The position numbers were made by a program, and so were the translations under genes. This document shows positions 3,102 to 39,934 of a stretch of 42,383 nucleotides of DNA, piece after piece. The notes under the pieces were generated by a model that ran no database searches, was not told where the DNA came from, and was given only the letters and a program-made list of their open reading frames with translations. Position 1 is the stretch's first letter; every line of letters begins with the position of its first letter. This stretch comes from an uncultured Gammaproteobacteria bacterium. GTDB taxonomy: Bacteria; Patescibacteriota; Patescibacteriia; UBA9934. The stretch lies in the NCBI GenBank assembly GCA_964645815.1, contig CAZYCR010000002.1, positions 1 to 42,383 of the forward strand. Reading direction: 5' to 3'.

Positions 3102-3130
3102 TTGACAAAAACGCGAAAATCTGCTAAATT
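3102..3130 (+). promoter_or_regulatory. sigma70-type promoter P1 (TTGACA-17 nt-TAAATT) for GC-rich gene 1
   Basis: TTGACA at 3102-3107, a 17-nt spacer, TAAATT at 3125-3130, about 55 nt upstream of the start codon. Confidence 0.6.
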
Positions 3131-3138
3131 TTCGCGTT
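3110..3138. promoter_or_regulatory. operator-like 11-bp inverted repeat overlapping the P1 spacer and -10
   Basis: AACGCGAAAAT (3110-3120) and ATTTTCGCGTT (3128-3138) are exact reverse complements, separated by 7 nt. Confidence 0.4.
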
Positions 3139-3185
3139 CTTCAAATTGAAGACAAGTTCCTTAACCAATTAGTATGGAGGCCGTG

Positions 3186-4220
3186 ATGGCCAGAAATGAT
3201 AACCCGGTGAAGCGCAGCATCTTCCTCACCCCGGTCGAGCTGGGCGTGTGGGAGAAGCTGATTGACGGTGACGAACACTTCGTCACCGACCTCAAGGGCA
3301 AGGGCAGGTTCGACCGTAAAGCGGTGTGCCGAGCTGTTGCTCGTTTCGCTGACGCGAAGCTGTGCCTGCTCGACGGTCCGTGCGAAAACGATGCTACGGT
3401 GGTGAAGCTCACGGTCGATCCGACTGACTTCTACGTCATCGACGTGATCGACGGAGAACGCCCCCTCGCCACGATCGAAGAAGCCTACCTCGATATCTTC
3501 CGGGCGGTCGAGATGAAGGCGGGGAAGACCGGCGATCCACCGGGATTCATTCCGACCAAGTCGGGCTTCCGTATGGAATTCCGCGAGTGGCTGAAAAACC
3601 TCAGGAGTGATCTCAACCCCGGAACGGTCGGCAACAAGGTCTTCAGCTACAGGTCATGCGCCGAGGGCCATGTGCCGGTGGACTCTTTTGGCATCGTCAT
3701 GGTGCTGAAGTATGTCACCTGCATCTGCTGGCCCGGCATGGAGCCGGTCGACTTCCAGCTTCGAGAGCGGCCTCCCAGGCGCTTTCCGAAGCGGGAGTAC
3801 AATGGGCGCAAGGTACCGCTGCGAGGTGGTGAGCAGCTGTTCGAGCTGCTCGGTAGCAGGGGAACGAGCGCCGGCGATCAACTGCCCGCCGTCGACCGCG
3901 CACCGGAGCCGCCGCCCGTCGTGAACGAGCCGGGGCAGTTCGAGACCTTCGAGCTGCCCATCTTCACGGCGGAGGGACTCAAGACCCTCCACGGCGACGA
4001 GCTCGGCCACTACGCGGCGCGTAACCTCGATGGTCGCCGTGTTCTCGAGGAGAACACAACACTCATGGAGGCCGAGCTGGAGCATCGGCGTTCCATGGTC
4101 GAGGAGCTAGACCGGCAGATCGAGGCTATCGGGAATAGCCTCACGGCGCTACAGGAGCAGATGCAGCTCCTTGCCACGCGGCTCAAGGAGATCCGGGAGG
4201 AACGCACGAAGCTCCTCTAG
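3186..4220 (+). CDS. GC-rich hypothetical protein A (paralog of 4348-5226) with C-terminal coiled coil
   Basis: Long ORF with G/C-dominated third codon positions. GGAGG at 3176-3180 lies 5 nt before ATG 3186; ATG 3174 is the alternative start. The C-terminus is heptad-like and Leu/Glu/Gln-rich. No known motif recognised. Confidence 0.7.
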   Translation: MARNDNPVKRSIFLTPVELGVWEKLIDGDEHFVTDLKGKGRFDRKAVCRAVARFADAKLCLLDGPCENDATVVKLTVDPTDFYVIDVIDGERPLATIEEAYLDIFRAVEMKAGKTGDPPGFIPTKSGFRMEFREWLKNLRSDLNPGTVGNKVFSYRSCAEGHVPVDSFGIVMVLKYVTCICWPGMEPVDFQLRERPPRRFPKREYNGRKVPLRGGEQLFELLGSRGTSAGDQLPAVDRAPEPPPVVNEPGQFETFELPIFTAEGLKTLHGDELGHYAARNLDGRRVLEENTTLMEAELEHRRSMVEELDRQIEAIGNSLTALQEQMQLLATRLKEIREERTKLL

Positions 4221-4231
4221 CTCTACGTATA

Positions 4232-4275
4232 GCCGGCCAATTCCCAGGGGGAGTTGGCCGGCGCAATCTTTATAT
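4232..4275 (+). terminator. GC hairpin downstream of gene A (weak T tract)
   Basis: GCCGGCCAA (4232-4240) pairs with TTGGCCGGC (4254-4262), followed by GCAATCTTTATAT. Confidence 0.45.
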
Positions 4276-4281
4276 AAATAC

Positions 4282-4310
4282 TTGACTTTTTTAGCGGATT
4301 CGACCATAAT
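4282..4310 (+). promoter_or_regulatory. sigma70-type promoter P2 (TTGACT-17 nt-CATAAT) for GC-rich gene 2
   Basis: TTGACT at 4282-4287, a 17-nt spacer, CATAAT at 4305-4310. Confidence 0.6.
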
Positions 4311-4347
4311 ATGCGGTCGCTTCTTTCACCAGCGACAGAGGTGTCAC

Positions 4348-5226
4348 GTGCCACACAAAAAAGTTATCAAGCCCAGGTATTTTGCCTTCATGACTCCCAG
4401 GGAGCGAAAGCTCTGGGAGCTGCTGCGCGAAGGCCAGAAGTTCGAGACGTCACCGTACCGCAAGCAGATCGAACGCTTCCGGGTCTTTGGTCTCTTGGGC
4501 AGGAGCGAGAAGATGAGTCTCAGGCTTCTCCTCAAGCCGGAGGAGCTCGAGATCTTCCCGATCGACAAGAGATTGGAACGCGAGATCGAAGCCGACTACT
4601 TCGCCATCATCAGCGCCATCGTGTCCGGCGAGTTCCACCATGAAGGCACCGGGTTGACCGCTTCCCTGATGAACTTCATCGGAGAGGTCGCACCCAGTCT
4701 CAACACTGTATCGACCTACCGCAAGATGATCGTCGCGTCGACCGAGAAGATCCGCCAGGGGAAGAAGCCGTTCGAGGTGATCACCTCTGACTCCTCCAAC
4801 GTTCAGCTCTGTTGGAGAGGCTTCACGCGCTACGAGTTCATCCCTGTCAACAAGCCGGTGCGCAAGTGGCGACACCGTCTCAACAAGCCCAAGCTTGAGA
4901 CAGGGGGAGAGACGTCAGAGAAGGAGATCGACCAGGTCGAAGAGGTCGTGCGGACTGCGAGCAACGAGGCCGACGAAACCAACCCGATCACCGATCTGCT
5001 CAAGAGCATCGAGCAGCGACCTCTCGAAGACCTCCTCCGGCTCGAGGCAGGGCTTCCCGGCGTGTTGGAGACTGTTCGACGTCTCGTCGAACAGCGACGG
5101 AACCAGCATATCCAGGAGCTCGAAGCGAAGCTTCTGGAGCTGCAGCAACAACAGAGGACGCTCGAACTCGAGCTCGATGCACTGCGTCAGACCCGTATCT
5201 TCCTGGTCGGTTCCGAAGTGGCCTGA
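4348..5226 (+). CDS. GC-rich hypothetical protein B (paralog of 3186-4220) with C-terminal coiled coil
   Basis: GTG at 4348 is preceded by GAGGTG (4338-4343). This start gives an N-terminus colinear with protein A (FMTPRERKLWELL vs FLTPVELGVWEKL). The 4171 start in the ORF track would run through the terminator and P2. Confidence 0.7.
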   Translation: MPHKKVIKPRYFAFMTPRERKLWELLREGQKFETSPYRKQIERFRVFGLLGRSEKMSLRLLLKPEELEIFPIDKRLEREIEADYFAIISAIVSGEFHHEGTGLTASLMNFIGEVAPSLNTVSTYRKMIVASTEKIRQGKKPFEVITSDSSNVQLCWRGFTRYEFIPVNKPVRKWRHRLNKPKLETGGETSEKEIDQVEEVVRTASNEADETNPITDLLKSIEQRPLEDLLRLEAGLPGVLETVRRLVEQRRNQHIQELEAKLLELQQQQRTLELELDALRQTRIFLVGSEVA

Positions 5227-5243
5227 CCAACAACCTTTCTCGA

Positions 5244-38900: not shown

Positions 38901-38912
38901 CTGAGCATGTTT

Positions 38913-39094
38913 GGGCCCTTAGCTTCCTCCTTCGCTACTTTGTAGCTACGGCGGATTGGAAACAGCTGGCACGATCGCCAGCCTCGCTAAGGGCATAAAT
39001 TATGGGCCCTTAGCTTCCTCCTTCGCTACTTTGTAGCTACGGCGGATTGGAAACAGCTGGCACGATCGCCAGCCTCGCTAAGGACATAAATTAT
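38913..39094 (+). repeat. two tandem 91-bp structured repeats, each starting with the first 12 nt of tRNA-Ala
   Basis: Copies at 38913-39003 and 39004-39094 differ at one base (G to A at unit position 81). Each starts GGGCCCTTAGCT, identical to tRNA positions 1-12. It then folds into a 9-bp closing helix (GCCCTTAGC/GCTAAGGGC) plus hairpins GCTAC-TTT-GTAGC and GCTGGC-ACGATC-GCCAGC. Confidence 0.9.
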
Positions 39095-39171
39095 GGGCCC
39101 TTAGCTCAGCTGGCTAGAGCGCTTGCATGGCATGCAAGAGGTCACGAGTTCAAGTCTCGTAGGGTCCACCA
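39095..39171 (+). tRNA. tRNA-Ala (anticodon GGC), CCA encoded
   Basis: Cloverleaf GGGCCCT-TA-GCTC-AGCTGGCTA-GAGC-G-CTTGC-ATGGCAT-GCAAG-AGGTC-ACGAG-TTCAAGT-CTCGT-AGGGTCC-ACCA, with G3:U70. Confidence 0.95.
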
Positions 39172-39177
39172 GACAAA

Positions 39178-39208
39178 TTTAAAACACCCGCAAGGGTGAT
39201 TTTCTTTT
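39178..39208. terminator. bidirectional rho-independent terminator
   Basis: CACCC-GCAA-GGGTG is flanked by AAAA on the left and ATTTTCTTTT on the right, so it can stop the tRNA unit (+) and the GC-rich lipoprotein gene (-). Confidence 0.7.
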
Positions 39209-39209
39209 G

Positions 39210-39246
39210 TAAAAACACGAACGCCCCGGCACACTAGGTGCACCGG
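39210..39246 (-). terminator. GC hairpin immediately downstream of the lipoprotein gene
   Basis: On the minus strand: CCGGTGCAC-CTA-GTGTGCCGG (9 bp including two G-U), then GGCGTTCGTGTTTTT. Confidence 0.45.
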
Positions 39247-39266
39247 AGCGCGAGAGCCAAACCCGA

Positions 39267-39821
39267 CTAGTTGTTGACGATGAAGTCGTCGAGTCGGATC
39301 TTGGCGTAGCAGTCGTCGTCCCGCTGGTACTCGCGGAACTCGACCTCGAGACCATTGTTCTCGGCGTAGATGAACATCCCCGCCGAGTTCGCCTCGCAGA
39401 AGGCCTGCTGGCCGTCGATGACGGCGCGGACCTCCAGGTCGCCCTCCGAGATGACCCCGGGGGTGTTGACCTGTGCGAGCGGGTCCCAGACGGTGGTGTC
39501 GAGCACCCCGACCAGGTTGGCACGGTCGTAGCGCAGCTCCCAGTGGATGGGGGCGCCGATCGACATGCGGTCGTTGACCTCGATGCCGATCTCGAGACTT
39601 CCCGGCTCGAGCGCGGGGCCCGAGCACAGATCCTCGACGAACCCGATGCCGTTGTTACACTGACCCGCCATGGGCCAGCCACCGGGCCACTCCTCGCAGC
39701 CGGTGAGGGCGACGAGGAGGAAGACGGCGAGGGCCGCGATCTTGAGACCGAGACCCAGAAGCTTGATGGTCAGACCCAGAAGCTTGATGGTCAGACCGAG
39801 AAGCTTAAACATGTTGGTCAT
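39267..39821 (-). CDS. GC-rich putative lipoprotein (184 aa), unknown function
   Basis: AGGAGG lies 6 nt before ATG 39821. The signal peptide ends in the lipobox LTGC. Third codon positions are G/C-rich. The other two minus-strand frames are also open here but translate to Arg/Pro/Gly-rich junk. Confidence 0.65.
   Translation of the reverse strand: MTNMFKLLGLTIKLLGLTIKLLGLGLKIAALAVFLLVALTGCEEWPGGWPMAGQCNNGIGFVEDLCSGPALEPGSLEIGIEVNDRMSIGAPIHWELRYDRANLVGVLDTTVWDPLAQVNTPGVISEGDLEVRAVIDGQQAFCEANSAGMFIYAENNGLEVEFREYQRDDDCYAKIRLDDFIVNN
39759..39806. repeat. 21-bp tandem repeat (2.3 copies) inside the signal-peptide coding region
   Basis: AAGCTTGATGGTCAGACCCAG / AAGCTTGATGGTCAGACCGAG / AAGCTT, encoding KLLGLTI-KLLGLTI-KLLGL... 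Confidence 0.85.
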
Positions 39822-39905
39822 TGCTGACCTCCTGGCCTTTTGGCCAAATGAGTAGGAGCGAACTGTTCGTCGATAGGCACTATTTGCCATTCTTGACGAC
39901 TTTAA

Positions 39906-39934
39906 ATAATAGCATAAAAATGGCCTTTTGTCAA
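39906..39934 (-). promoter_or_regulatory. promoter P5 (TTGACA-17 nt-TATTAT)
   Basis: The -35 is at 39929-39934 and the -10 at 39906-39911 (minus strand), giving a leader of about 80 nt. Confidence 0.6.

Follow-up and report, generated by a model that had tools for sequence, protein, structure and literature searches.

The window analysed here is the whole 42,383-nt NCBI contig CAZYCR010000002.1, and within it five open reading frames (ORFs), named G1 to G5, differ sharply in base composition and in expression signals from the other genes. The remaining contig genes are of a housekeeping character and include those for MetRS, TatD, GATase, the atp operon, a UvrD/PD-(D/E)XK helicase-nuclease, MreB/MreC, PBP2, GreA, a class II aminoacyl-tRNA synthetase, alanine racemase, an M23 peptidase, ClpB and MazG, together with tRNA-Ala. 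Protein comparison points to an Uhrbacteria-like member of the Patescibacteria (the candidate phyla radiation, CPR) as the source organism, ClpB being 70-71% identical to its counterparts in Patescibacteria metagenome-assembled genomes (MAGs) and 65% identical to that of a Candidatus Uhrbacteria MAG. The five ORFs occupy two variable, insertion-prone gaps between conserved housekeeping genes, G1, G2 and G3 between the GATase gene and the atp operon, and G4 and G5 between clpB and a gene for a 454-aa protein; in relatives these gaps are either empty or filled by other cassettes. All five are probably real protein-coding, monocistronic accessory-gene cassettes of a CPR chromosome. They are as follows, GC3 being the G+C fraction at third codon positions.

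G1: 3186-4220, plus strand, 344 aa; a conserved N-terminal domain of about 200 aa and a C-terminal coiled coil; GC 0.62, GC3 0.80
G2: 4348-5226, plus strand, 292 aa from a GTG start; a distant paralog of G1 with the same domain and coiled coil; GC 0.58, GC3 0.78
G3: 6394-6636, plus strand, 80 aa; a singleton cluster; GC 0.60, GC3 0.75 (0.63, 0.43 and 0.75 at codon positions 1, 2 and 3)
G4: 37561-37926, minus strand, 121 aa from a TTG start; a small cytoplasmic protein; GC 0.52, GC3 0.57, a moderate G+C-richness only
G5: 39267-39821, minus strand, 184 aa; a lipoprotein precursor with lipobox LTGC, four further conserved Cys and an all-beta prediction; GC 0.64, GC3 0.90

The G+C content of the window overall is 42.5%. 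In 300-nt steps there are peaks of 57-65% at 3301-5100, 55% at 6301-6600, 51% at 37501-37800 and 53-66% at 39001-39900, and nearly everywhere outside these G+C-rich segments the value is 31-49%. The abrupt compositional change at five ORFs, from which the original prediction started, is borne out most clearly at third codon positions, where GC3 is 0.57-0.90 as against 0.25-0.42 in the 38 other ORFs of the window, and where the enrichment is in both G and C. At second positions all five stay at 0.35-0.43, and since GC2 is low where GC3 is high, the signal has the three-base periodicity that marks coding DNA of a G+C-rich background. A structured RNA in place of a protein product was rejected, with this periodicity clear and Rfam negative: inside the G+C-rich segments a search at E ≤ 0.1 returned nothing except a sub-threshold small RNA match across the G1 promoter. 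The difference in codon usage from the neighbours, proposed at the outset as a check, is pronounced when computed, the pooled relative synonymous codon usage of G1, G2, G3 and G5 being anticorrelated with that of native genes (r = -0.36). The fit to G+C-rich taxa is close, with r = 0.89 for a Patescibacteria contig (L169) and 0.85-0.87 for Actinobacteria and Myxococcota, and identification of a donor from codon usage was rejected for its lack of discrimination among high-GC taxa.

Each of the five also has its own expression signals. In the list that follows, duplex energies are for the Shine-Dalgarno (SD) sequence computed against the canonical anti-SD, and L081 is a contig of the nearest relative.

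3102-3130, plus strand: G1 promoter, TTGACA-17-TAAATT with a TG-extended -10 box; 10 of 12 matches in the promoter scan
3110-3138, plus strand: putative operator overlapping the G1 -10 box, a perfect 11-nt inverted repeat with a 7-nt spacer, AACGCGAAAAT-N7-ATTTTCGCGTT
3176-3180, plus strand: G1 SD, GGAGG, duplex -9.3 kcal/mol
4232-4262, plus strand: G1 terminator hairpin, GCCGGCCAA...TTGGCCGGC, then T-rich sequence; read by eye, and missed by the scan because of its long loop
4282-4310, plus strand: G2 promoter, TTGACT-17-CATAAT; 10 of 12 matches in the scan
4338-4343, plus strand: G2 SD, GAGGTG, duplex -7.1 kcal/mol
5244-5287, plus strand: G2 intrinsic terminator, CCCGCCGGC-AGGT-GCCGACGGG, then a T run; read by eye
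6334-6362, plus strand: G3 promoter-like site, TTGACA-17-CTAAAT, with a weak -10 box that fails the -10 rule of the scan
6381-6387, plus strand: G3 SD-like sequence, AAGGGGG, duplex -12.5 kcal/mol
6659-6692, plus strand: hairpin downstream of G3, GCGCCGG...CCGGCGC, with no T run; read by eye
37933-37938, minus strand: G4 SD, AGGAGG, duplex -12.9 kcal/mol; AGGAGGTG is identical in L081
37952-37980, minus strand: G4 promoter, TTGACG-17-TTAACT with TG extension; read by eye, fails the -10 rule of the scan
39221-39251, minus strand: G5 intrinsic terminator, a 14-bp stem then a T run; found by the scan
39822-39905, minus strand: G5 leader of about 77 nt, in which the hairpin GGCC-AAAA-GGCC abuts the SD AGGAGG (39828-39833); fold z = -3.25
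39906-39934, minus strand: G5 promoter, TTGACA-17-TATTAT with TG extension; 11 of 12 matches in the scan

A canonical SD (GGAGG, GAGGTG, AAGGGGG or AGGAGG) stands 5-7 nt before the start codon in 5/5 of these ORFs and in 1/32 other genes (Fisher p = 1.4e-5), and the mean duplex energy is -10.6 kcal/mol for the former and -0.5 kcal/mol for the latter, so that the claimed contrast between strong SDs on the five and next to none on native genes holds. The claim that each has a promoter with a 17-nt spacer stands for G1, G2 and G5, whose promoters the scan recovers with 10-11 of 12 matches; for G3 and G4 the -10 boxes are present but fail its rule. The native promoters that had been quoted for comparison, those of atp and a tRNA, are recovered as well. 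The G1 leader is about 48 nt long. An intrinsic-terminator hairpin is seen for at least three of the five units (G1, G2 and G5), and G4 converges with clpB. Composition, SDs and promoters together support the view of the five as compositional aliens in self-contained units.

Comparison with L081 shows retention of these signals for G4 and G5. The G4 promoter elements TTGAC and TGnTTAA.T are kept, the stretch from -35 to -10 of the G5 promoter is almost identical, and the SDs of both genes are identical across near-saturated divergence, which lends indirect support to use of the SD in initiation. At the position equivalent to the G5 leader hairpin L081 has GCCC-TAAC-GGGC, the hairpin being preserved through compensatory change, and CAGGAGGTCAG is identical.

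Native first genes are arranged otherwise, with a TATAAT box 8-10 nt before the ATG, as is seen in the window for MazG and the 454-aa gene and in L081 for three such genes, and operon-internal genes start directly after the preceding stop codon. The spacing of the TATAAT box, which points to a leaderless geometry, supports the earlier description of native genes as near-leaderless. (The native TATAAT sites are at 40016-40032 and 38840-38854 of the window, and in L081 upstream of 8193, 11370 and 18284.) The region from -25 to +35 is more structured in the five genes than in native ones, with folding energies of -11.2 versus -5.6 kcal/mol (p = 0.005), and the leaders and first codons of the cassettes are adapted, being A+T-rich.

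The gap between the GATase gene and the atp operon has the following features besides those of the three cassettes themselves.

3088-9050: variable island, about 6 kb long, that separates the GATase gene from the atp promoter and contains G1, G2, G3 and four A+T-rich ORFs
5345-5557, 5595-6080, 6988-7728 and 7780-8730, all minus strand: the A+T-rich island ORFs, with no family match
6274-6300: left arm of a perfect 27-nt inverted repeat (100% complementary) around the G3 cassette
6734-6760: right arm of the same inverted repeat, from the repeat search
6952-6967, plus strand: first copy of the exact 16-nt direct repeat AAGCCCGCGCCCATTA, the second copy being at 8810-8825; two matches, 0 expected by chance

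In the metagenome contig L085, whose GATase is 74% identical to that of the window, the atp promoter and leader lie about 115 bp after the GATase stop codon, and because the GATase gene there abuts the atp promoter, the sequence from 3088 to about 9050 is an island relative to L085. G1, G2 and G3 are interspersed in it with four family-less A+T-rich ORFs, and this mosaic looks like the product of serial insertion at a hotspot rather than of one block from a single donor. Either G1-G3 were acquired after the split from the nearest relative, or the L085 lineage has lost them. The atp promoter (TTGACC-17-TATACT) and its leader are themselves almost identical in the two sequences (window 9063-9119, L085 1619-1676) with a GATase of only 74% identity; synonymous sites are near saturation in the comparably diverged pair of window and L081, and near-identity despite such divergence bespeaks strong constraint.

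G3 has no relatives in Pfam, PHROGs, PADLOC, NCBIfam, IMG/VR, PLSDB or the family loci (tblastn). The inverted repeat around it does not extend beyond its 27 nt, and neither the 27-mer nor its 18-nt core occurs in IMG/VR or in the 171 loci searched. There is no target-site duplication in the flanks (GGTGGA before, GTAACC after) and no transposase at the unit. A repeat search of the window found no repeat common to the five cassettes, the 27-nt inverted repeat being confined to G3. The 16-nt direct repeat brackets the pair of A+T-rich ORFs spanning 6988-8730 and suggests a separate insertion at the same hotspot. A+T-rich inverted repeats also surround each ORF of that pair, at 6981-7002/7738-7759 (22 nt, 95% complementarity) around 6988-7728 and at 7747-7771/8762-8786 (25 nt, 92% complementarity) around 7780-8730. 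A defence system was considered and rejected, as PADLOC matches none of the five genes and none of the four A+T-rich island ORFs; a diversity-generating retroelement or other retroelement was likewise rejected, the window having no reverse transcriptase and no template/variable repeat pair.

The second gap lies within the conserved order gltX-wecG-DUF2238-clpB-gap-454aa-LigB. In the nearest relative, whose ClpB is 90% identical and which is represented by four independent assemblies (L081-L084; ENA, two from NCBI, and Logan), orthologs of G4 and G5 are syntenic and have conserved promoters and SDs. In two more distant relatives, L003 and L004, the gap is empty and clpB and the 454-aa gene are adjacent; in L001 it holds DUF5654-rpoD-dnaG, and in L002 a membrane protein, a pyrophosphatase and three G+C-richer cassettes. 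The L002 cassettes (14092-14748, 15020-15580 and 15789-16055) are paralogous, each with a TTGACA- or TTTACA-type promoter; two encode standalone C-terminal domains of the RNA polymerase alpha subunit (Pfam 30.2 and 24.0 bits, cutoff 23.8), and the first two have in common a duplicated 3′ region of about 95 nt that includes the terminator. The original prediction held that orthologs of the same composition at the same loci in all relatives would mark ordinary vertical genes: such orthologs of G4 and G5 are present in the nearest relative and not in distant ones. Its suggestion of repeated acquisition is upheld, with more than one gain event indicated by the absence of the island from L085 and, in L003 and L004, by the position of clpB next to the 454-aa gene.

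The G4 orthologs, 59-61% identical and in Patescibacteria only, include that of L081, which has ATG where the window has its TTG start. For G5 the ortholog P0008 is 68% identical, with conserved lipobox and Cys pattern. The lipobox L-x-[GA]-C, VALTGC in the window and AALTGC in P0008, follows a hydrophobic helix, as judged by sequence inspection with no dedicated predictor, and G5 is probably a surface lipoprotein, predicted to be disulfide-bonded. Its AlphaFold2 (AF2) model is poor, with a predicted local distance difference test score (pLDDT) of 46 that precluded a fold search. G5 evolves faster than the four larger native genes (nonsynonymous divergence, dN, 0.22 versus 0.08-0.14); the small DUF5652 and DUF5654 proteins are higher. 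A 21-nt tandem repeat at 39751-39806 (2.7 copies, 97% identity) lengthens the signal-peptide n-region by KLLGLTI repeats; these are missing in the G5 ortholog, and the repeat is recently expanded.

Close to G5 there are two further observations that concern the tRNA-Ala(GGC) gene at 39095-39171. Directly 5′ of it, at 38912-39093, are tandem tRNA-like elements in two 91-nt copies, each of which opens with the first 12 nt of the tRNA (GGGCCCTTAGCT), has CCTCCTT, and folds as a three-way junction (z = -3.7); they have no Rfam match at E ≤ 0.1, and in L081 one copy is kept beside tRNA-Ala at about 11186-11285, with two compensatory pairs. L081 also has, at 10747-11148 between its G5 ortholog and tRNA-Ala and overlapping the 3′ end of the tRNA, an ORF for a GIY-YIG endonuclease that the window lacks.

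G1 and G2 are related to each other (BLASTP E = 1e-3, colinear across 193 aa). A full HMMER search of 1.84 billion representatives with a profile of the N-terminal domain common to both yields seven proteins (P0011-P0017, E 6e-7 to 2e-4), five labelled Uhrbacteria or Patescibacteria, directly or via a 90% cluster member, and two with no taxon label that are encoded beside housekeeping genes on chromosomal contigs; tblastn against the family loci gives E values of 2e-10 to 5e-7. The motifs FLTPVE..VW and CWPGFEP.F and the C-terminal coiled coil are features of the family, and the domain has no Pfam match and, in a sequence profile search, no PDB match. As far as sequence goes, G1 and G2 represent a new small family of putative DNA-binding proteins found in Patescibacteria only. 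Its members adjoin differing housekeeping genes, and where the upstream sequence is readable have a TTGAC-type -35 at promoter distance; a terminator-like hairpin follows most of them. The GC3 of the member exceeds that of its neighbours by 0.45 in the window and by 0.27, 0.27, 0.20, 0.15 and 0.09 to complete six genomes, the seventh, L169, giving -0.06. The last is a Patescibacteria contig of 62.6% GC, with core GC3 of 0.85-0.92 and a family member at 0.84, and its ORFs without a Pfam match are G+C-poorer than their core neighbours, which fits a common pool of intermediate composition. In L165, from a 55%-GC Patescibacteria MAG, a 4-kb island at 2870-7077 has five ORFs with no Pfam match that are G+C-richer than the flanks, with the G1/G2-family member at its end; one of its ORFs, 4565-5056, gives a weak sub-threshold match to reverse transcriptase (RVT_1, E = 6e-5).

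A possible function comes from structure prediction. The AF2 model of G1, built on a ten-sequence family alignment, has a pLDDT of 70.7, rising to 80-90 in much of the stretch 10-200, and residues 270-343 form a long helix. Foldseek comparison with PDB and BFVD retrieves almost exclusively winged-helix domains (the ORC2 winged helix, AF1382, BlaI/MecI, MarR, Fur) at probabilities of 0.8-0.97 and E values of at least 0.05. KfrA_N (PF11740) gives a non-significant E of 0.18 with G2 (13 bits, cutoff 26.1) and no match with G1. A dimeric DNA-binding protein with a coiled coil, and possibly a winged-helix fold, is the probable product of both G1 and G2. The palindrome at 3110-3138 is unique in the window, with 0 expected by chance, and the family member of L168 has a palindrome, GCGCTAATATTAGCGC, that overlaps its own -10. 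By binding this putative operator over its own -10 box, G1 may repress itself. Resemblance of the operator half-site to the conserved atp leader (TTTTCGCG) was judged to be chance, because L085 keeps that leader but has no G1 at its GATase-atp junction.

Searches for relatives and for a source were made at several levels. In Pfam, PHROGs, PADLOC and NCBIfam none of the five proteins has a significant match, coiled-coil noise apart, and the earlier statement that they belong to no known family stands as far as these libraries go; it does not extend to G1 and G2, members of the small Patescibacteria family, or to G5, a lipoprotein. G4 and G5 have one homolog cluster each, both in Patescibacteria MAGs. 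No homolog of the five genes was found outside Patescibacteria, either in a word-seeded search of 5.8 billion proteins or, for the G1/G2 domain, with HMMER in the 1.84 billion representatives. IMG/VR and GenBank phages (blastn, tblastn) have no relatives of them, nor has PLSDB (tblastn). No integrase, transposase, recombinase or structural phage gene is present among the window ORFs scanned, and the unscanned short ORFs are too short for an integrase. Phage or plasmid origin was rejected with IMG/VR, GenBank phages and PLSDB all negative. A parallel was met in a different CPR class: the Saccharibacteria MAG L056 (40% GC) has two adjacent genes of 59-70% GC, at 4492-4917 and 5484-6038, with the same anatomy. 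The product of one is basic and of low complexity and that of the other is secreted; each gene has an SD and is followed by a hairpin, and a clear TTGACA promoter precedes the first.

As to RNA genes more generally, neither the window nor any of nine related loci contains an rRNA, and at the gathering threshold Rfam finds two tRNAs only in the window. The one at 16255-16347 on the minus strand is 93 nt long (41.5 bits), with about 20 additional nt in its anticodon arm, and its ARAGORN label, Asn(att), is doubtful. As read by eye, this arm consists of a 7-bp stem and an extension that closes in a U-UGA-A loop; there is either a short insertion or a much lengthened anticodon stem, and either is unusual for a bacterial tRNA.

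The age of the cassettes can be approached through fourfold-degenerate sites. Between the window and L081 the excess identity there is 0.10 for G4 and 0.14 for G5, while it is 0.07-0.15 in 7/8 native genes and -0.05 in MazG, and this equality of divergence with native neighbours means that G4 and G5 predate the split from L081. A bound on amelioration was calculated with a two-state neutral model, using the measured fourfold divergence and an ancestor assumed to have been 100% GC at those sites, and neutral decay since that split gives a ceiling of 0.50-0.58 or lower for their G+C fraction (GC4). The values for G4 (0.62 and 0.42 in the two genomes) and for L081 G5 (0.68) are compatible with plain decay.

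With a probability of about 0.6, the best explanation of the whole is that these are moron-like accessory cassettes from a Patescibacteria pool, SD-led in the midst of an SD-less core. Each unit would combine a G+C-rich coding sequence with a promoter of the sigma70 type and a leader that bears a canonical SD, and at least three of the five have an intrinsic-terminator hairpin in addition. Acquisition would have been staggered, with G4 and G5 already present before the split from the nearest relative and G1-G3 added after it, unless these were lost there. Their source would be a gene pool seen so far only in Patescibacteria, most plausibly in G+C-richer members, and not a non-CPR host, the simplest view being of a Patescibacteria-wide accessory pool that moves among lineages differing in base composition. 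Most individual gene transfers detected in Patescibacteria run between Patescibacteria, and genomic islands and transferred genes have been reported in them (PMC12455944), with which a pool of this breadth fits. Core genes would start translation on leaderless or A/U-rich, SD-less mRNAs, whereas the G+C-rich imports, with longer and more structured 5′ regions, would for that reason be SD-dependent. The coupling of SD to G+C content would then be functional, the SD permitting translation of structured G+C-rich 5′ ends.

Several points weigh against this explanation. For none of the five genes did the searches turn up a donor or a near-identical copy, G1 and G3 are singletons among the 5.8 billion proteins, the case for a G+C-rich Patescibacteria donor consists of remote family membership and composition only, and any high-GC genome matches the codon usage of the cassettes about equally well. 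Every Foldseek E value for G1 is at least 0.05. The link between the SD and 5′ structure is a correlation, and the favourable finding in seven other Patescibacteria loci, where genes with no Pfam match surpass the others in SD strength (p = 3.5e-4) and in GC3 (p = 0.006), comes from a biased sample, the loci having been picked for holding homologs. Most pointedly, the GC4 of G5 in the window is 0.93, above the neutral ceiling of ≤ 0.58 (p = 4e-9) after near-saturated synonymous divergence, and old import followed by drift fails to explain it; either a G+C-rich allele replaced the earlier one recently, or active maintenance keeps the composition as it is.

The second of these possibilities, extended to all five, gives the alternative that they are long-resident, lineage-specific genes whose G+C-rich synonymous sites are held against A+T mutation bias by a force that could be selection on mRNA structure/stability or on decoding speed, or else GC-biased gene conversion at recombination hotspots. 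It draws on the age of G4 and G5, at least that of the L081 split, on the GC4 of window G5, on the greater G+C-richness of family members than of their neighbours in 6/7 genomes, and on L165 and L168, whose family members are at the same site upstream of mnmA with GC4 of 0.86 and 0.91 where the neighbours have 0.52-0.62. These two members are, however, just 35% identical with no residual synonymous identity, and independent insertion is equally possible for them. With plain decay sufficing for G4 and for L081 G5, the G1-G3 island missing from L085, family-less A+T-rich ORFs occupying the same hotspots, and the ORFs without a Pfam match in L169 poorer rather than richer in G+C than their neighbours, such long residence is unlikely, though it deserves serious thought. 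Capture by DNA uptake from the high-GC host of an episymbiont, for instance an actinobacterium, is now very improbable; a host donor had been among the conjectures of the original prediction. The correlation of codon usage with the Actinobacteria and Myxococcota samples, the two like-built cassettes of Saccharibacteria L056, and the lack of any relative of G3 speak for it; but every detectable relative of G1/G2, G4 and G5 is in a Patescibacteria MAG, high-GC bacteria are well sampled in the sets in which no homolog outside Patescibacteria was found, and the 62.6%-GC Patescibacteria genome carries a family member at native composition.

Remnants of a prophage, plasmid or other mobile element, whether true morons, integron cassettes or transposon passengers, are a comparably poor prospect. 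The classical description of a moron combines promoter-gene-terminator anatomy with atypical composition, as here, and the inverted repeat around G3, the 16-nt direct repeat around the neighbouring module, a TraG/VirD4-like gene near the family locus of L168 and an IS200-type transposase near that of L169 also have a mobile flavor. Yet PHROGs, PADLOC, IMG/VR, GenBank phages and PLSDB are silent, the window ORFs scanned are housekeeping ones with no integrase, transposase or structural phage gene (several short ORFs being unscanned), no repeat is common to the cassettes and the 27-mer is nowhere else among the sequences searched. That there would be a single family of cassettes, as was also suggested, is not supported, only G1 and G2 being mutually related and no recombination site being common to all. 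A chimeric assembly or contaminating high-GC sequence is scarcely credible: G1-G3 are known from this one contig only, but the ten composition junctions coincide with promoters, SDs and terminators, the cassettes of G4 and G5 recur with the same junctions, promoters and SDs in the four independent assemblies, the G1/G2 family is specific to Patescibacteria, and leaders and first codons are A+T-rich and adapted. The artefact proposed at first, of assembly or construction, thus has no support. A bolder generalization, for which the odds are rather long, is of a Patescibacteria-wide class of accessory genes, self-contained promoter-SD-gene-terminator units that are SD-dependent amid a leaderless or SD-less core and whose G+C is kept by selection or biased gene conversion rather than being due to recent import; such a class would accord with the anatomy seen in the Saccharibacteria MAG L056 and in further Uhrbacteria-like MAGs, and with the lack of amelioration in G5.

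Comparison with known systems helps to place accessory cassettes of this kind. In lambdoid phages a moron is an autonomous promoter-gene-terminator unit between conserved genes, with atypical base composition. The cassettes resemble it in being single genes between conserved ones, with their own sigma70-type promoter and, in at least three of the five, an intrinsic terminator, a composition unlike that of the neighbours, and presence or absence among otherwise syntenic relatives. They differ in their location in a cellular chromosome between housekeeping operons (atp, clpB) rather than in a prophage, with no phage gene or PHROG match near them, and in being G+C-richer than the host genome and unlike native genes in their mode of translation initiation. 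Because the defining phage context is absent, they are not classed as morons; in terms of process they count as accessory genes that arrived by lateral transfer and lie in genomic islets. Laterally transferred genes ameliorate compositionally over time, and alien and ORFan genes are usually A+T-richer than the host genome. The cassettes share with transferred ORFans and islets an atypical codon usage, a narrow phyletic distribution, a setting in variable regions and transfer mostly within Patescibacteria (PMC12455944), and the features of lateral aliens are there in the codon usage correlation of -0.36, in homologs that are few and in Patescibacteria, and in absence from L085 (G1-G3) and L003/L004 (G4 and G5). 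They depart from that picture in being strongly G+C-richer, in that each is a full expression unit, and in the failure of G5 to ameliorate over near-saturating divergence.

Other resemblances are more partial. As in integrons, single-gene modular units accumulate at a hotspot, but there is no attC-like common repeat and no integrase, and the cassettes have their own promoters, two loci and both orientations. The G3 unit has terminal inverted repeats (6274-6300, 6734-6760) like a miniature inverted-repeat transposable element or insertion-sequence-type element, and is unlike these in having no target-site duplication, transposase or multiple copies. With KfrA-like plasmid proteins G1 and G2 have in common a possible DNA-binding domain at the N-terminus, a long C-terminal coiled coil and, for G1, a palindrome at the promoter; the domain of about 200 aa matches no Pfam or PDB sequence family, the KfrA_N match is non-significant and DNA binding is putative. 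What is unusual in the cassettes is the trio of a G+C-ward shift, strict SD coupling in a leaderless, SD-less genome, and one unameliorated gene.

Genomes of Patescibacteria are tiny and much of their lineage-specific content is unannotated. The combination of an own promoter, a long leader, a strong SD and G+C-rich codons, set off from a leaderless, SD-less and A+T-rich core, is a simple mark by which insertion hotspots and accessory genes can be recognized in one CPR clade at least, and G5 is a concrete case in which the standard amelioration clock fails. If transfer within the phylum is of the ordinary kind, gene flow from G+C-rich to A+T-rich Patescibacteria is documented here and the idea of genes stolen from the host is weakened. 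If there are indeed two translation regimes, this would have a bearing on how episymbionts regulate their surface and regulatory proteins; under the bolder generalization, the SD-led units would provide these minimal cells with a second channel of expression, open to separate tuning, for DNA-binding and surface proteins specific to the lineage.

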